A DNA stretch of 42,548 nt from the IMG/VR virus record IMGVR_UViG_2671180275_000010, one strand, 5' to 3'. Under the pieces are notes generated by a model. That model ran no database searches and was not told the DNA's origin. It worked only from the letters and a program-made list of their open reading frames with translations. Below are positions 2,059-14,131 of this stretch, piece after piece; the stretch's first letter is position 1; each line of letters begins with the position of its first letter. This DNA comes from a virus. Taxonomy: Duplodnaviria > Heunggongvirae > Uroviricota > Caudoviricetes. Both the position numbers and the translations under genes were made by a program.

Positions 2059-3003
2059 TCATTGATTCACCTCCTGCCTGTCGTCCGGCATTCGCTCACT
2101 ACAGCTTATCCAACCATCCGGAGTTACCGGAACTTGTGGAATGGCTGTCTGCTCTCGAACGTCATTAGGCGCTATAGGTTCTGCTGCCAACTGACTGGCA
2201 TATTTGTTAATGGTAACGATAAGCTCTTGCTCAGCCTCATCCAGACAATCACCGATACCTCGCCTGTCACCGTCAAAATCATCGAAATCGGCACGAATCC
2301 TGGCAACCTTCAGGATTGCGGACAACACCTCACTAGGAATTGCCGGATAGTTGGTTGACGTTTCCGCGATTTCCCGAAAATTATTGGTTGACGAATTCTT
2401 GTTTTCCCGAAAGTTTCCGGACTGAAGCATGGCGGCGCGGCAGGCGTTCCATATTTCGGCAGCAATATCGCGCTCGCTATCGGTTAATTTGTACGTTGAA
2501 ACATAGCCAGAGAGCATTTCTACGTTTTCCGGAGTTGCTTCTTCAGGCACTACCGGTGCTGGCTCACGTATTACAGGCTCGCCCATGCGTGATTCTCCCT
2601 GCGCCTCTTTCACCATGTGGTCATTGATTTGCTCCAGTCGCCGAACGTGCTCATCAGCTTCAAGCGCTCGCCGTTTCCAGATGGACAGGTCTTCACGAGC
2701 GCCCTGATATGCGTCACCGTATTCGCCGTTAAATACTGGCGCTGGCGGGGCGATGCGTCCAAGCAACTTATTTACCTCTTTCGCCATCGCGTCATATTTA
2801 TCTAAATAGCGATTAGCTTCTAAGCAGACTCGGTGCATCTGATCTGAGTTAACTCGTTTAACTGGATCTGCTTCCAATGATGCCAGTGCAATCCGTGCCA
2901 GTTCTTCCGCTTCTTCTGCTGGCAGTACAACGTTGCTACCCGGTCCGTATGTTTCGCGCCACTGCTTGATTGTCAGCAGTCGCCCTTTGGTAATAGTGAT
3001 CAT
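2059..3003 (-). CDS. Hypothetical phage protein, acidic with coiled-coil segments (possibly Ea22-like family)
   Basis: 314-aa ORF; its start overlaps the stop of the upstream gene in an ATGA arrangement (translational coupling); family assignment is from memory of prophage Ea22-like proteins only. Confidence 0.45.
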   Translation of the reverse strand: MITITKGRLLTIKQWRETYGPGSNVVLPAEEAEELARIALASLEADPVKRVNSDQMHRVCLEANRYLDKYDAMAKEVNKLLGRIAPPAPVFNGEYGDAYQGAREDLSIWKRRALEADEHVRRLEQINDHMVKEAQGESRMGEPVIREPAPVVPEEATPENVEMLSGYVSTYKLTDSERDIAAEIWNACRAAMLQSGNFRENKNSSTNNFREIAETSTNYPAIPSEVLSAILKVARIRADFDDFDGDRRGIGDCLDEAEQELIVTINKYASQLAAEPIAPNDVREQTAIPQVPVTPDGWISCSERMPDDRQEVNQ

Positions 3004-3515
3004 GCCGCGTTTCCTTCTTTCTTATTAACAATCACACCGTCATATATTTCATTAAGGTGCCCTCTCAACTCCATGCGCCTTAATGCAGATAACATGTAAT
3101 CGCATTCAACCTGCTTATTCCCGGTAAATGGCTTATCGTCAGGATTACCCCAACAGCAATTACCCCTGGGCCATCCATGTACTTTCCGTACTCTTCCGTT
3201 AACAACGTGAAGTAATCCCCAGCCGGGAGGTAAATCCTCAACTGAAATAATTTCCGGCTCACTAATAAAGAATCGCCAGTCGCCCATGCCAAGTGAGGGA
3301 TTTTTACGGAAACGCTTTTTTCTATCTGCCAACAAGTCAGCACGAGAACACTTCGCCTCTATCAGGCATGATGCTGAATTTCTGAATCCCATAGCATCTG
3401 GCTGTTCTCCGGTACTGGTTACAGCAACAAAGCGGTCATGAAAGCAAACCTTGAACCCGTTGCGCTTAAGGAACTTGTACGCAATCTGACAGAGTTCGTG
3501 GTGTGTTAACGCCAT
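3000..3515 (-). CDS. Putative PD-(D/E)xK nuclease-fold protein (MmcB-like)
   Basis: 171-aa ORF with AAGGAGA Shine-Dalgarno; contains ...QPDAMGFRNSASCLIEAKCS..., i.e. a PD...(D/E)xK-like spacing. Confidence 0.45.
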   Translation of the reverse strand: MALTHHELCQIAYKFLKRNGFKVCFHDRFVAVTSTGEQPDAMGFRNSASCLIEAKCSRADLLADRKKRFRKNPSLGMGDWRFFISEPEIISVEDLPPGWGLLHVVNGRVRKVHGWPRGNCCWGNPDDKPFTGNKQVECDYMLSALRRMELRGHLNEIYDGVIVNKKEGNAA

Positions 3516-3516
3516 A

Positions 3517-4089
3517 TCACTCTCCTTTGATGCGAATGTCAGCGACGCGTAATGCGTGTTCTAGGTCAATCAGGTAAAGCCAACTGCCATTTTCTTTAGG
3601 TATCATGACTTGTCGCTCATCTGCATTTATCGGGTGTCCATATCGAAGGTCGTAGCGAGTCGGTAATTGAACTTCCCGCGCTTCCAGTTCAGCAATACGC
3701 TTGCACCCATCAGAGATAACTCCCTCGTAATACTCGCGCTGCTCGTTGAGTTTTGATTTTGCTGCTTCAAGCTCAACGCGCAGCTTCCCAACCGTAAGCG
3801 CAATATCCTCGTTCTCCTGGTCACGGCGTTTGATGTATTGCTGGTTTCTTTCCCGTTCATCCAGCAGCGCCTGCACTACTTCAGGGTTGAAAGCTGCGAT
3901 ATAACGAGCGTTGTTCTCTGCGTTGTTCTGTCCATCAAAGCCGGTCCATTTGATAACGTCTTCACATCGTTTATCACCAGGTGTATGCACCGCATATGTA
4001 CCAGTACCAGACGAAATAAATGCGACCCATTCACCCTGTGTTGCCAGTTGCGCCGCTTTACGCAGTGCCTGATAGTCAATCTTGCTCAC
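3517..4089 (-). CDS. Ead/Ea22-like family protein (start moved to in-frame GTG preceded by AAGGAGG)
   Basis: Track ORF 3517..4125; GTG at 4089 has a strong SD and overlaps the stop of the upstream 79-aa gene (GTGA); N-terminal ...IDYQALRKAAQLATQGEWVAF... resembles the conserved N-terminus of prophage Ea22-like proteins; coiled-coil C-terminus. Confidence 0.5.
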   Translation of the reverse strand: MSKIDYQALRKAAQLATQGEWVAFISSGTGTYAVHTPGDKRCEDVIKWTGFDGQNNAENNARYIAAFNPEVVQALLDERERNQQYIKRRDQENEDIALTVGKLRVELEAAKSKLNEQREYYEGVISDGCKRIAELEAREVQLPTRYDLRYGHPINADERQVMIPKENGSWLYLIDLEHALRVADIRIKGE

Positions 4090-4325
4090 TGGTTGCCTCC
4101 TTTGCGGATCTGCGCTGCGATGCACGAAAAAAAAGACTCCCGCGTATGACTGTTAAGAGCTGGCGCGAACGCTGCGTTAAGAACGGCAGCATCACAGCCG
4201 TCATCGATATAGAGCGCAATTTTTTTCTCCAGGCGCGCTTTGGCTTCCTGCAACTGCATACCCCGGCACGCACGCGGGATATAATCAGCAATTTGAGCGA
4301 TAGCTTTTTCGTTCTGTTTAAACAT
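4086..4325 (-). CDS. Hypothetical small protein
   Basis: 79-aa ORF, stop overlaps downstream GTG start, start overlaps stop of upstream ORF; operon-style packing. Confidence 0.4.
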   Translation of the reverse strand: MFKQNEKAIAQIADYIPRACRGMQLQEAKARLEKKIALYIDDGCDAAVLNAAFAPALNSHTRESFFSCIAAQIRKGGNQ

Positions 4326-4521
4326 GCTTCACCTCGATAGGCTTGATGGTGTCTAACAGCAGTCGGCGGCACGTATTTTCTGCAAAGTGGCGGCGTCCAG
4401 TTTCTTTGTGGTAAAACTCGTTTTTGCCGACGACCCACATCCGTTCTGTTTGGTGCAATTTTTTTACCTGCGGTCCATCTTTGGTGATCACGGTACCGGT
4501 ATGGGTTTTTACGATTGTCAT
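4318..4521 (-). CDS. Hypothetical small protein
   Basis: 67-aa ORF; ATGA overlap with the stop of the PAPS-reductase-like gene. Confidence 0.4.
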   Translation of the reverse strand: MTIVKTHTGTVITKDGPQVKKLHQTERMWVVGKNEFYHKETGRRHFAENTCRRLLLDTIKPIEVKHV

Positions 4522-5396
4522 GCCACTACCTCTTCGAATTTCAACTCCAATTGGTCACCCCAGATTTCACATGATTCGGAACACGAACCAGTATCAAACC
4601 GCTTGGCCAGCACCATCGCCTGATACAAACTTCTGTAGTCGCTGTCGGCATACATTCTGGCAATCCTGTCAAGCGTCAGGTGACCACGGTACATAACGTC
4701 TTTACCTGTTCTGCGATGACCATCCCGGACGTGTTTGCCTGTAACCAGTTCATTAAAAACCCGCATCAGACCAGGTTCGTCTTTACATGCGATCCCCAGC
4801 TTTTGCGTTGACTTTTTGATGCAGAAAACACAGTTCCCGAGGTGCTCCGGGATTTGCAAATCAAAAGGTTGTTTACGCCACCACCGGATAACATCCGACT
4901 TATCAAAATCTGACAGCTCGGCAAGATACCGGACGCCCGGTTTCGGTTTCAGCCTACGGTGTTCGTCCGCACGAATACCCAGCCATGTGATGTAATTCCC
5001 TCGCCCAAAATGGTCATCGCAATATTTCGTGAAAGGGGTGAGTTTTAGCCTGTCAGTACAGAATGCGCCGCCGATGTATGGCGTACCGTACTTTTTAACC
5101 ATGTCCATAAACGGTTTAAGCACCGGCATTCGCGTCTGAATATCCTTTGGTTCCCATTCCGTATAACCATTTGGCTGCCCAAGCTCTGGATTTATATCGA
5201 CCTGCAACACAGTTAGCGGTATGCCCCAGAACTTCACAACCTCCCGAATAAAGCGGTATGTCAGCGGATGTTCGCAACCGGTATCCATAAAGATGTAGCA
5301 GACGTTATTGCCAGCCTTTCTTTGTTCTTCCATCAGGTGAACAAGATATGCAGATGTTCTCCCGCCAGAAAAACTAACTACATGAGTTATGCACAT
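4518..5396 (-). CDS. PAPS reductase-like PP-loop ATP-pyrophosphatase family protein (adenine nucleotide alpha-hydrolase superfamily)
   Basis: 292-aa ORF; N-terminal PP-loop VVSFSGGRTSAY followed by ...CYIFMDTGCEHP..., typical of the CysH/PAPS-reductase family; function in phages unknown. Confidence 0.75.
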   Translation of the reverse strand: MCITHVVSFSGGRTSAYLVHLMEEQRKAGNNVCYIFMDTGCEHPLTYRFIREVVKFWGIPLTVLQVDINPELGQPNGYTEWEPKDIQTRMPVLKPFMDMVKKYGTPYIGGAFCTDRLKLTPFTKYCDDHFGRGNYITWLGIRADEHRRLKPKPGVRYLAELSDFDKSDVIRWWRKQPFDLQIPEHLGNCVFCIKKSTQKLGIACKDEPGLMRVFNELVTGKHVRDGHRRTGKDVMYRGHLTLDRIARMYADSDYRSLYQAMVLAKRFDTGSCSESCEIWGDQLELKFEEVVA

Positions 5397-6051: not shown

Positions 6052-6876
6052 TCAGGCGGTGAAAGTACCAATAAAGGTTTCTACTTTGCTGTCTTTGAAT
6101 TTCTCAACAAGCAGATCACGAAATTCGTTAGCCATTTCTTCCTGCACTGCTTCCAGCTGAATAATGCGCAGAACCAGTACAGGACGATCGCCAGTGATAA
6201 TGCTGAGGCGTAATTTAAATGGACGTTCTTTCAGACCTTCAAACGGAACGCATTTAAATTCAAATGCCACTGGCATAATATCTTTGGTCTTCGCTTCGAC
6301 AGACTCCATCAGGGAGCGTTTGCCGCTGAAGTCATTATCTTCAAAATCAGCGGTCTGGTTTGCTTCAATCGTGATTTTACGGACCGCCGCAGCCGCTTTT
6401 GTTGCCTGAATAGCGTCACCATTAGCATCAAAGCCCACAAGGTAGTCGGACCAGTCTTCAATCCATTCTGCCAGTGACTTCTGGGAGTTACGCTCGCCGT
6501 TAACAGACAACAGGGCAGAGAACGGTGCTGTCTTTTTCAGTTTGAGAGTGGCGGTGTTATCTGCGTGACCTGGTTCATCAATAGTACCCAGGTTAAGCAC
6601 ACTGACTGCTCGCATATTATCGGCATCGATAAATCAGCGGGTGCCTTCATCTGCAAGATCTTTAGAATAACGGGTAAAGTCATCGATGCTGGCAGTGGAA
6701 AGCGCACCACGGAAACGGAAGCGATTTAAATTAAATTTTTCCAGATCATGAATGCGGAAATTCTCAGGCAATGCCACAGCATCGGCACCAATCTTACTGA
6801 TAATTTCATTAACACCCTGAGCAGAAATAAGGGAATGAATTTGATTAATTGCGGTTGCGTCTAAGTTCTGAGACAT
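6052..6876 (-). pseudogene. yfdQ-like (DUF2303-type) gene interrupted by a single in-frame stop codon (track ORFs 6634..6876 and 6052..6615 share one frame)
   Basis: 80-aa and 187-aa ORFs are in the same frame, separated by one stop (read as TGA at 6634-6636) plus 6 sense codons; combined 274 codons equals the length I recall for E. coli CPS-53 YfdQ. Confidence 0.45.
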
Positions 6877-8026: not shown

Positions 8027-8719
8027 TTAATTGTGTCGCTTAAGGGTTTGTGACTGGCTGATTAAGACCTTTCCAAAGACCATAAACCGGTGTTCATTTT
8101 CGCTGGTAATTCCCCATTCACGGTAAATCTGGTTATCAGAAATTACCAGTAGTTTGTCAGGTATCATTTGCAGTCGTTTGACATAAATTTTATCATCAAA
8201 ACCAAACACATAGATACCATCCCCATCAAACTGATTGATACTGATATCAACGAAGATGAGATCTCCTGGCTCAATGGTTGGACACATACTGTCCCCACGA
8301 ACGTTGATAACTTTAATGTGATTTGCTGGTCGTCCACCAAACATCGATACAGCATTATCAGTTCTGTATTCAATGGCATGAATCACATCAATGACATCAC
8401 CGCCCTGGATAAGGCCATTTCCCGCACTGGCACTGACATCCAGCATTTCAATACGGAATACATCCTTCACCTGCGCAACATCCTCACTAATACTGTTTTT
8501 ACATACAGTATTACTTTTGAGGTCTGAGGTAAAGAGATCAGCAATATCAACACCTAAGCTCCTGGCAATATTACTCAGGGCTTGTTCAGTGAATTGTTTC
8601 TGCTTACCTGTTTCGAGGCGCGAGATATTCGCCGCATCCACTCCTATTGCTTCAGCGAGATCGGCGATTTTCATGTTCTTCGCCTGGCGAAGTTGTCTGA
8701 CTCGATTTCCTATGTTCAT
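8027..8719 (-). CDS. cI: CI-like prophage repressor (HTH_XRE N-terminal domain + S24 LexA-like autopeptidase domain)
   Basis: 230 aa; HTH (IADLAEAIGVDAANISRLETG); Ala-Gly cleavage site (SASAGNG); S24 catalytic Ser in GDSMCPTI and Lys in VKRL; divergent from cro. Confidence 0.9.
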   Translation of the reverse strand: MNIGNRVRQLRQAKNMKIADLAEAIGVDAANISRLETGKQKQFTEQALSNIARSLGVDIADLFTSDLKSNTVCKNSISEDVAQVKDVFRIEMLDVSASAGNGLIQGGDVIDVIHAIEYRTDNAVSMFGGRPANHIKVINVRGDSMCPTIEPGDLIFVDISINQFDGDGIYVFGFDDKIYVKRLQMIPDKLLVISDNQIYREWGITSENEHRFMVFGKVLISQSQTLKRHN

Positions 8720-12272: not shown

Positions 12273-12763
12273 TCATGAGTCTGATGAACGATGTACAGAA
12301 ATTCATTGAAGCCCATCCGGGGTGTACTTCAGGTGACATTGCGGATGCTTTTGCTGGTTACTCACGACAGTGCGTTCTGCAGTCAGCAAGCAAGTTACGT
12401 CAGAGTGGCCGTGTGGCTCACTGTTGTGAAGGGAAAACACGCAGACATTTCCCACACCAGGCTGAGATATCGCAGGAGGAGAAACTGCAACCTGTTCTTG
12501 AAACCATACCTGTGCGCAATTTCTATGTCGGCACTAACGATCCCCGGGTGATTTTGTGCCTGACCCGCCAGGCGGAAGAACTGGAGTCCAGGGGCTTATA
12601 CCGTCGTGCTGCAACCGTGTGGATGGCGGCATTCCGTGAAAGCCACTCCCAGCCAGAACGAAACAATTTTCTGGCGCGTCGTGAGCGGTGCTTACGGAAA
12701 AGCAGAAAGCGCGCTGTAGCGGGTGATGAGTGGTATCTGTCAGGGAATTACGTGGGGGCTTAA
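12269..12763 (+). CDS. Hypothetical replication-module protein
   Basis: 164-aa ORF, coupled between the replication initiator and the methylase. Confidence 0.4.
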   Translation: MIMSLMNDVQKFIEAHPGCTSGDIADAFAGYSRQCVLQSASKLRQSGRVAHCCEGKTRRHFPHQAEISQEEKLQPVLETIPVRNFYVGTNDPRVILCLTRQAEELESRGLYRRAATVWMAAFRESHSQPERNNFLARRERCLRKSRKRAVAGDEWYLSGNYVGA

Positions 12764-13416
12764 TGAGTAATAAATATTGCCAGGCGCTGGTGGAACTACG
12801 GAACAAACCAGCCCATGAACTGAAGGAAGTGGGCGATCAGTGGCGCACGCCGGACAACATTTTCTGGGGAATTAACACCCTGTTTGGCCCGTTTGTTCTG
12901 GATCTGTTTACTGACGGTGATAACGCCAAATGTGCCGCGTATTACACGGCGGAAGACAACGCGCTGGCACATGACTGGTCAGAACGTCTTGCGGAGCTTA
13001 AAGGTGCTGCCTTTGGTAATCCCCCGTACAGCCGCGCCAGTCAGCATGAGGGACAATACATCACCGGCATGCGTTACATCATGAAGCATGCCAGTGCCAT
13101 GCGTGATAAAGGCGGGCGCTATGTTTTCCTGATCAAAGCGGCCACCAGCGAAGTGTGGTGGCCGGAAGATGCAGATCATATTGCTTTTATTCGCGGGCGT
13201 ATTGGTTTTGAACTGCCAGCCTGGTTTATCCCGAAAGACGAAAAGCAGGTGCCAACAGGTGCTTTCTTCGCTGGTGCTATTGCTGTTTTCGACAAGACCT
13301 GGAAGGGAGCGGCAATCAGCTACATCGGGCGCGATGAACTTGAGGCATGTGGTGAGGCATTTCTGGCGCAGGCTCGCCAGCAGGCGGAAAAACTGGTCAG
13401 GGAGATGGCGGCATGA
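12763..13416 (+). CDS. Phage Dam-family N6-adenine DNA methyltransferase (orphan)
   Basis: Start at Met12 of the track ORF (ATG overlapping the upstream stop); motifs DLFTDGDN and catalytic FGNPPYS (NPPY); no adjacent restriction endonuclease. Confidence 0.8.
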   Translation: MSNKYCQALVELRNKPAHELKEVGDQWRTPDNIFWGINTLFGPFVLDLFTDGDNAKCAAYYTAEDNALAHDWSERLAELKGAAFGNPPYSRASQHEGQYITGMRYIMKHASAMRDKGGRYVFLIKAATSEVWWPEDADHIAFIRGRIGFELPAWFIPKDEKQVPTGAFFAGAIAVFDKTWKGAAISYIGRDELEACGEAFLAQARQQAEKLVREMAA

Positions 13417-13739
13417 CGACATTAACTCAATGCCAGCAGCAGGTGCTGGATATGCTGATTTCTTATCAGAAAGAACGTGGCTTCCCGCCAACCAATCAGG
13501 AGGTGGCAACCATGCTGGGATACCGTTCGGTGAATGCAGCGGTGGAGCATCTTCGCGCACTGGAGAAAAAAGGCGTCATCACGATAAAGCGTGGCGTGGC
13601 CCGGGGGATAACGCTTCATACTGCGATGAAGGACGACGACAGCGAGGCGGTCGGGATTATCCGCGCACTGCTTGCCGGTGAGGAAAACGCAAGGCTGCGT
13701 GCAACCCACTGGTTACATGAGAGGGGCCTGAAAGTATGA
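13413..13739 (+). CDS. LexA N-terminal DNA-binding-domain-only protein (no S24 peptidase domain)
   Basis: 108 aa; aligns with E. coli LexA residues 1-70 including the recognition helix (ours RSVNAAVEHLRALEKKGVI vs LexA RSPNAAEEHLKALARKGVI); the ORF ends where the LexA cleavage/peptidase domain would begin. Confidence 0.75.
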   Translation: MTTLTQCQQQVLDMLISYQKERGFPPTNQEVATMLGYRSVNAAVEHLRALEKKGVITIKRGVARGITLHTAMKDDDSEAVGIIRALLAGEENARLRATHWLHERGLKV

Positions 13740-14131
13740 AGCTAATACTGCCTTTTCCGCCCAGCGTGAACACGTACTGGCGACACCCTAACAAAGGGGC
13801 GTTTGCTGGTAAGAGCCTGATAAGCGCGGCGGGGCGAAAATTCCAGAGCGCGGCGTGTGCAGCAATAGTTGAGCAGTTACGTCGTCTGCCGAAACCAACG
13901 TCGGCACCTGCTTCAGTGGAGATCGTGTTGTTTCCTCCGGATAACCGGATCCGCGATCTGGACAACTATAACAAGGCGCTGTTTGACGCCCTGACCCACG
14001 CGGGTGTGTGGGAAGACGACAGCCAGGTGAAAAGAATGCTGGTGGAGTGGGGACCGGTTATCCCGGAAGGGAAGGTCGAGATCACTATCAGTAAGTACGA
14101 AAAAGCGAGTTGCAAATTAGCAACTCGGTAA
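13736..14131 (+). CDS. rusA: RusA Holliday-junction resolvase
   Basis: 131 aa; LPFPPSVN and DLDNYNKALFDAL signature blocks of RusA. Confidence 0.9.
   Translation: MKLILPFPPSVNTYWRHPNKGAFAGKSLISAAGRKFQSAACAAIVEQLRRLPKPTSAPASVEIVLFPPDNRIRDLDNYNKALFDALTHAGVWEDDSQVKRMLVEWGPVIPEGKVEITISKYEKASCKLATR

Follow-up and report, generated by a model that had tools for sequence, protein, structure and literature searches.

A predicted PD-(D/E)xK nuclease related to MmcB and Hjc in a probable early operon of an Escherichia coli lambdoid prophage and on other mobile elements

MmcB of Caulobacter crescentus is described as an SOS-induced PD-(D/E)XK endonuclease that protects this bacterium from mitomycin C and cisplatin and has been hypothesised to act with translesion polymerases (PMC9578287). 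The structure given for its family (PF06319, DUF1052, COG5321; now named MmcB-like) in a census of PD-(D/E)XK proteins is 3dnx (PMC3424549), and DUF1052 has been linked to the archaeal Holliday-junction resolvases (PMC1189080). Here we describe a gene, the open reading frame (ORF) ORF-B, in a stretch of 42,548 nucleotides (IMG/VR record IMGVR_UViG_2671180275_000010; the whole stretch is called the window below) that is an Escherichia coli lambdoid prophage. The predicted fold of the ORF-B protein is PD-(D/E)xK, and its nearest relatives are the MmcB-like proteins, followed by Hjc. An earlier annotation of the window made without database searches (the sequence-only reading) had placed an Ea22-like protein and a nuclease-fold protein at positions 3000-4089, and these are the exact bounds of two minus-strand ORFs, ORF-B and ORF-A (Table 1).

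The AlphaFold2 model of ORF-B, made from an alignment of 36 relatives, has a predicted local distance difference test score of 85.5 and a predicted template modelling score of 0.81. It contains a helix at residues 5-18, strands at residues 23-26, 41-45 and 48-54, a helix at residues 58-65 and a strand at residues 80-85, an order that corresponds to the canonical alpha-beta-beta-beta-alpha-beta core by which the PD-(D/E)xK superfamily is recognised. In the model, D40 directly precedes strand 2, and strand 3 carries E53-x-K55 where it ends on the C-terminal side. The residues expected of the superfamily active site are present, namely an aspartate at the start of strand 2, a (D/E)xK motif in strand 3 and an acidic residue upstream. 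The sequence-only reading had proposed a nuclease fold from a QPD ... IEAK motif, which we locate at residues 38-40 and 52-55, and had set structure prediction beforehand as the test that could refute it; the prediction shows both the PD-(D/E)xK core and the catalytic residues.

To place ORF-B in its family, we ran an exhaustive profile search (E<=1e-3) of a library clustered at 50% identity, which recovered 3245 representatives. Conservation was counted in an alignment of 68 diverse members that are 31-61% identical to ORF-B (alignment A2). None of D40, E53 and K55 varies among 36 relatives, whose sources include Klebsiella, Serratia, Morganella and Providencia. In the wider alignment, D40 is invariant (68/68) and E53 and K55 are each retained in 67 of the 68 sequences, and this conservation argues that the QPD/IEAK motif is beyond chance. 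The acidic residue at position 27, E37, D40, E53, K55, D60, D64, K67, R70, R81, W99 and E137 are all kept in 66-68 of the 68 members. K55 is followed by a family signature, S57-R58-x-D60, in which D60 is kept in 68/68 and which is common to the MmcB-like proteins (SSRADF there). The helix that carries this signature and continues with D64, K67 and R70 is likewise common to MmcB. An iron-sulfur or zinc site was considered from residues conserved among close relatives (H5, C9, C50 and C138) and rejected, as conservation of the cysteines does not extend beyond these close relatives.

The only significant Foldseek match of the ORF-B model was its top match, 3dnx (E=4.2e-6); the weaker matches were to restriction enzymes, Can2/Card1, VRR-NUC, NucS and Hjc. 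Among viral models, several phage proteins that carry the UniProt name "MmcB-like DNA repair protein" match (E 7e-8 to 1e-3). A fragment of the 3dnx sequence finds only PF06319 proteins, one of which is named "MmcB family DNA repair protein". When profiles were searched against the PDB, 3dnx was the top match of the narrow profile A1, but with an E-value of 0.55 only, while the profile of the wider alignment A2 matched 3dnx with E=2.8e-5, and Hjc followed at about 0.8. Searched individually against Pfam, 32 of the 68 members of A2 show weak matches to Hjc (best E=1.3e-4), 21 to MmcB-like (best E=2.9e-4) and seven to AHJR-like. The family profile was also aligned to the MmcB-like alignment with hhalign, which gave a probability of 96.8% (E=2.6e-10) in a test that spans the N-terminal 56 columns only; the 3dnx-fragment search gave only short PF06319 fragments. 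In this alignment D27/E, D40, E53, K55, S57-R58, D60 and K67 are in register with the EE...D...ECKSSRxD...K of the MmcB-like proteins.

Profile-profile comparison and structure thus identify ORF-B as a homolog of the MmcB-like proteins, whereas the Pfam models of MmcB-like (PF06319) and Hjc (PF01870) do not recognise it: ORF-B has no match in Pfam at E<=10, these two families included. Nor does it match any NCBIfam model at E<=1, and a phmmer search of PDB sequences returned nothing significant. ORF-A, ORF-B and ORF-C all lack matches to the PADLOC-DB 2.0 defence models at E<=1. The PHROG matches of ORF-B are to families of unknown function and, weakly, to a "DNA repair protein" family (phrog_5429, E=0.0046). 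Since ORF-B matches no Pfam, NCBIfam or PADLOC model, it does not, strictly, count as a Pfam member of MmcB/Hjc but as a sister family. The label "MmcB-like" of the sequence-only reading therefore holds for the relationship, which emerges from structure and profile-profile comparison only, and not for membership in PF06319. The fold and the chemistry that goes with it are of a well-known kind, and no new mechanism is involved. What appears to be new, from sequence comparison and modelling, is that a common gene of Shiga toxin (Stx)-converting and other lambdoid phages, phage-plasmids and some IncF plasmids, labelled "hypothetical" in the public records examined, represents a large uncurated family of MmcB/Hjc-like nucleases.

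ORF-B is intact in the window. It aligns end to end with its homologs, and its length is the normal full length of the family. RefSeq, as annotated with the Prokaryotic Genome Annotation Pipeline, nevertheless calls the intact gene a 179-nt "frameshifted" pseudogene in three records, namely STEC2018-607, HUSEC2011 and one phage-plasmid. The flagged span corresponds to positions 3337-3515 of the window (6438-6616 in locus L001, 3338-3516 in L011 and 5338-5516 in L019). A real frameshift in the ORF-B of the window was rejected on the basis of the end-to-end alignment. In E. coli O157:H7 TW14359, a deletion of two nucleotides inside the I-E-A-K codons leaves a truncated stub of 58 amino acids, which is annotated as a protein (WP_001356547.1; locus L103, 1838-2014), and other O157:H7 copies of ORF-B align with the same 2-base shortfall. 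The use of this stub as a reference is the likely explanation for the false flag.

The O157:H7 copies also bear on whether the family may have lost its catalytic activity and descended into a DNA-binding or regulatory protein, for example one that acts in the lysis-lysogeny decision. Some PD-(D/E)xK proteins are deficient in catalysis. In addition, the exo-xis genes ea22, orf63 and ea8.5 influence developmental decisions (PMC7093339, PMC3824215). However, each of the four catalytic positions is retained by 67-68 of the 68 divergent members, which would be unexpected if catalysis had been lost, and the pseudogene of O157:H7 TW14359 is broken exactly at the ExK codons. We therefore consider a catalytically dead descendant very improbable.

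Among 5426 complete E. coli genomes, 928 carry the gene, and 248 of the matching places are on plasmids. It is further found in 642 phage records, many of them of Stx-converting phages, and in 865 plasmid records. In prophages of Klebsiella, Morganella and Rahnella, the family gene occupies the nin region, with the replication genes on one side of it and NinB/NinE/NinG/Q on the other. In Vibrio phage MAR10 (L003, 4866-5480), it follows genes for a DNA polymerase, a primase-helicase and an SNF2 helicase, and in phage Lys8385Vzw a DEDD exonuclease gene is placed behind it. The Kuttervirus Salmonella phage SenASZ3 (L010, 3980-4597) encodes a relative of 205 amino acids directly upstream of the DNA primase gene; this protein has only the N-terminal ~110 residues in common with ORF-B, and its C-terminal half is different. 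Near-identical copies of ORF-B are found on plasmids of 58-99 kb, and the one examined, which contains phage-type genes, is probably a phage-plasmid. The Burkholderia and Stutzerimonas plasmid contexts that we looked at have no informative neighbours.

A census of the nearest same-strand genes in 75 IMG/VR loci (71 distinct upstream and 70 distinct downstream neighbours) revealed no constant partner gene. The upstream neighbours include Ead_Ea22 and DUF551 proteins (five each), three C5-methylases and several helicases, and the downstream neighbours include DUF551, dATP/dGTP pyrophosphohydrolase, NinG, NinB, single-stranded DNA-binding protein (SSB), exonuclease and others. Helicases, methylases, SSB, NinB/NinG and nucleotide hydrolases are enriched among the neighbours. 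The start of the homolog is usually within a few bases of the upstream stop codon, whichever gene is located upstream. The distribution of the family is mobile and partner-independent, and the gene contexts (nin, polymerase/primase/helicase, exonuclease, ssb-psiB-psiA) point to a role in DNA metabolism.

From its relatives and its gene contexts, we suggest, with a probability of about 0.5, that ORF-B is an early-expressed DNA endonuclease that acts on the replication, recombination or repair intermediates of its own element. It would be a stand-alone PD-(D/E)xK DNA endonuclease, probably dependent on Mg2+. Induction or infection would switch on transcription of its gene as part of the leftward early (pL-type) operon, the lysogen would not express it, and the protein would be made in low, coupled amounts. 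The enzyme would cleave branched or damaged DNA intermediates that arise in the element's own replication, recombination and repair, and could, for example, remove lesions or resolve stalled or joint molecules when DNA damage has just induced the prophage. A prophage for which DNA damage is the typical inducer would benefit from such an activity, as would any element that has to replicate on entry. ORF-B would then not be a host-defence gene, and the adjoining Ea22-like gene would be an independent module rather than a functional partner.

Several observations weigh against this proposal. The substrate and role of the family are drawn from distant relatives and gene neighbourhood, the mechanism of MmcB is itself only hypothesised, and the geometry of the active site is deduced from secondary structure and alignment only. 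The prophage already encodes a RusA resolvase, and relatives of ORF-B coexist with NinG, so that a plain role as a Holliday-junction resolvase would be redundant and is weakened. The inactivation of the gene in O157:H7 TW14359, along with the shortfall in other O157:H7 copies, suggests that it is dispensable for prophage maintenance. Finally, the position of a homolog right after psiA on IncF plasmids fits a function in anti-defence or establishment at least as well.

This homolog is located in the leading region of some IncF plasmids, has 172 amino acids (L020, 6001-6519; also in L012-L015) and is 66% identical to ORF-B. It belongs to a cluster of 729 sequences (P0090), and copies of at least 90% identity are found in about 200 plasmid records. 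The gene order is ssb, DUF905, parB-like, psiB, psiA, homolog and hok; the homolog is co-oriented with ssb, psiB and psiA, and its start overlaps the stop codon of psiA. The gene represents an insertion of ~490 nt, which is absent from F itself (L104). This arrangement raises the possibility that the family encodes an establishment or anti-defence factor, which is made in the first minutes after the entry of the element and is shared by phages and conjugative plasmids for that reason. The protein could destroy or process nucleic acids of the host defence, or remove structures on the incoming DNA that trigger a response. Anti-defence genes are over-represented in leading regions, where ~10% of the uncharacterised families have phage annotations (PMC11541004). 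The phage copies are placed in early accessory regions (exo-xis, nin) beside further genes of a counter-defence type, namely Lar, DNA methylases and a gene similar to those for 3'-phosphoadenosine 5'-phosphosulfate (PAPS) reductase and SspD. On the other hand, the protein has no resemblance to known anti-defence proteins, the copies in lytic phages are located among replication genes and not in anti-defence islands, and the location alone is weak evidence. A search of the leading-region paper (PMC11541004) and of those of its supplements that were at hand found no mention of the family, which counts against this explanation. Overall, we regard an establishment factor as possible but rather unlikely. 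More doubtful is the joint claim that mobile elements hold this family in common as an "entry toolkit" nuclease, expressed minutes after entry both from phage early operons and, directly after psiB-psiA, from the plasmid leading regions that are transcribed from single-stranded DNA, which would process the incoming DNA or disable the host response. If true, an MmcB-like repair nuclease would have served as the basis of a new enzyme class that acts in establishment or anti-defence.

The gene upstream of ORF-B in the window, ORF-A, matches the Pfam family Ead_Ea22 (PF13935) over model positions 1-139 of 139 (E=6.8e-41, 140.5 bits, cut-off 27) and phrog_250 (E=1e-83), and its product name in RefSeq is "ead/Ea22-like family protein", as the sequence-only reading had recognised. 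It consists of a conserved N-terminal part and a coiled coil (residues 2-136), followed by a C-terminal part of ~50 amino acids that ends in KGE. A search of the C-terminal part against PDB sequences did not retrieve the solved C-terminal domain of lambda Ea22, in agreement with what has been reported for the homologs in Stx phages. In phage lambda, ea22 is an exo-xis gene that favours lysogeny and has pL as its promoter (PMC7093339, PMC10834534). The earlier description of the region as the b2 region or left arm is mistaken, as ea22 is one of the exo-xis genes in the leftward early (pL) operon (PMC7093339, PMC10834534).

Downstream, the mosaic protein ORF-C has no match to PF13935 at E<=0.1. 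Its only Pfam match above threshold is at the C-terminus, where a DUF551 domain begins and is cut short by the stop codon after its first 16 positions. It has the mosaic family phrog_60 in common with ORF-A. By Pfam, the earlier description of several Ea22-like proteins applies to ORF-A and not to ORF-C. A start of ORF-C at position 3003 is supported by its N-terminus, which aligns with the beginnings of phrog_660 and phrog_3323; RefSeq places the start at 2838 in one genome and, in another, at the ATG that overlaps ORF-B. The order Ea22-like gene, ORF-B and DUF551 protein is also seen in other phages (loci L002, L005, L007 and L103).

The genes of this segment are tightly packed. The stop codon of the 79-aa ORF overlaps the GTG start of ORF-A as GTGA, and the stop codon of ORF-B overlaps the ATG of ORF-C as ATGA. 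ORF-A ends in AAAGGAGAG-TGA-T-ATG, as read from the sequence, so that a single base separates its stop codon from the start of ORF-B. This packing fits translational coupling, as had been proposed for ORF-B and its Ea22-like neighbour, while the adjacency of these two genes is incidental and not specific. A specific two-gene system of Ea22 and nuclease was rejected: the gene upstream is Ea22-like in only five of 71 distinct IMG/VR contexts, PsiA, a helicase or a small ORF without relation to Ea22 takes its place elsewhere, and only 32 E. coli records contain the combination of ORF-A and ORF-B over at least 80% of its length compared with 961 that contain ORF-B. A separate observation concerns positions 3517-3530 of the window. 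The K/RGE motif common at Ea22 C-termini (PMC7093339) may be the footprint of the ribosome-binding site of the downstream gene, rather than a protein-function motif, since the K-G-E codons of ORF-A are at the same time the Shine-Dalgarno sequence of the next gene.

The minus strand upstream of ORF-A contains two small ORFs, followed by a PAPS-reductase-like gene, yfdR, yfdQ, yfdP and the repressor gene. From about position 2300 to a terminator just after the repressor gene (8006-7989), this strand has no promoter-like and no convincing terminator-like site, and because no such site interrupts them, ORF-A, ORF-B and ORF-C are most simply part of one leftward early operon. This organisation is relevant to the suggestion of the sequence-only reading that the nuclease could act in exclusion in a lysogen. 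A prophage defence nuclease of this kind would be expressed in the lysogen and cut the DNA of superinfecting phages, or act as an abortive-infection toxin. The accessory regions of prophages often contain defence genes. However, ORF-B is placed inside the repressor-controlled operon, the minus strand shows no promoter-like site that would serve ORF-B alone, it matches no PADLOC model, and neither a sensor or partner gene nor a constant neighbour accompanies it. Furthermore, close relatives are found in strictly lytic Kuttervirus and Vibrio phages, beside replication genes, and in the leading regions of plasmids. A role in defence or exclusion is therefore very unlikely.

Bases 2900-4200 of the window are 100% identical to strain STEC2018-607, in which the prophage is flanked by a DUF72 gene, yecN and cmoA/cmoB. 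Further observations concern other genes of the window. The PAPS-reductase-like protein (4518-5396, minus strand) matches the PADLOC models SspD (E=1.8e-15), DndC and BrxP, which are components of DNA phosphorothioation and bacteriophage exclusion (BREX)-type systems, and it represents a phage-borne relative of such defence-system enzymes. The yfdQ gene (DUF2303; 6052-6876, minus strand) contains an in-frame TGA at codon 81 (6634-6636), a position that is a cysteine in the otherwise near-identical prophage of STEC2018-607; yfdQ is thus split or inactivated in the window. The rightward operon encodes a protein of 108 amino acids with a LexA DNA-binding domain alone and the RusA resolvase directly after it (13413-14131, plus strand), and a Dam-type methyltransferase is encoded just upstream of the LexA-domain protein (12730-13416).

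Table 1. Features of the prophage window, with positions given for the whole stretch
Feature	Position	Strand	Description
Integrase gene	1-1287	minus	
Excisionase gene	1321-1575	minus	
DUF4222 gene		minus	Between the excisionase gene and ORF-C
ORF-C	2059-3003	minus	314 aa, mosaic protein
ORF-B	3000-3515	minus	171 aa, ATG start; predicted single-domain PD-(D/E)xK nuclease-fold protein of the MmcB/Hjc-like group
E53-A54-K55 codons (GAG-GCG-AAG)	3351-3359	minus	(D/E)xK motif, end of strand 3
D40 codon (GAT)	3396-3398	minus	D of PD (in QPD), at the residue that precedes strand 2; aligned to D44 of MmcB-like
D27 codon (GAC)	3435-3437	minus	First acidic residue, E in most relatives (E/D in 67/68); aligns with the conserved EE of MmcB-like
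ORF-B start codon (ATG)	3515-3513	minus	
Spacer base	3516	minus	Between the ORF-A stop and the ORF-B start
ORF-A stop codon (TGA)	3519-3517	minus	
AAAGGAGAG	3520-3528	minus	Last three sense codons of ORF-A (K-G-E), Shine-Dalgarno sequence of ORF-B
ORF-A	3517-4089	minus	190 aa, GTG start; Ead/Ea22 family
79-aa ORF	4086-4325	minus	Function unassigned (phrog_1344); same tightly packed leftward operon
Repressor gene	8027-8719	minus	S24/helix-turn-helix repressor
cro-like gene	starts 8817	rightward	First gene of the rightward operon
RusA resolvase gene	13736-14131	plus	

The assignment of ORF-B to the MmcB/Hjc group would provide a concrete active site that can be mutated (D40, E53 and K55) and opens experiments on the accessory genes of the exo-xis and nin regions, which in lambdoid and Stx phages are poorly understood. 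It also flags an unstudied gene that IncF plasmids of clinical relevance carry beside psiA in their leading region, and the connection to the leading region is the part that most deserves experiment.

Among the described systems, lambda Ea22 is the counterpart of ORF-A, with which it shares the full Pfam model, the position in the exo-xis region, an N-terminal domain with a coiled coil and the K/RGE end (PMC7093339). It differs in its solved C-terminal domain, which has no detectable sequence match in the C-terminal part of ORF-A.

For ORF-B, likeness at the level of the superfamily only is seen to the VRR-NUC proteins of phages and FAN1 type (PF08774). They too consist of a small PD-(D/E)xK domain and are often encoded behind SNF2-type helicases in phage replication modules, as is the homolog of ORF-B in MAR10, but the signature after the ExK motif is different. 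The archaeal Hjc (PF01870)/AHJR-like group resembles ORF-B in its minimal PD-(D/E)xK core, although both the structure and the profile scores of the ORF-B family against Hjc are far weaker than those against the MmcB-like proteins. The spacing of 13 residues between D and E in ORF-B is, we presume, equal to that in the Hjc of Sulfolobus (D42/E55/K57).

The MmcB-like proteins, which include 3dnx (SPO1766 of Ruegeria/Silicibacter pomeroyi) and MmcB of C. crescentus, are the closest. Like ORF-B, they are single-domain proteins, with a size of ~150-170 aa, and both the active-site register E/D...D...ExK and the downstream signature (S/T)-S-R-x-D-F-x-x-D-x-K are equal in the two families. However, the ORF-B family contains motifs specific to it, GMGDWRF...GWGLL in the middle and KPF..NKQ.E....SALRR at the C-terminus. 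The two families also differ in where they are found: MmcB-like proteins are mostly alpha-proteobacterial (PMC3424549) and SOS-regulated in Caulobacter (PMC9578287), whereas the members of the ORF-B family are encoded on phages, phage-plasmids and conjugative plasmids in records from Enterobacterales, Vibrio, Pseudomonas, Burkholderia and Acinetobacter.

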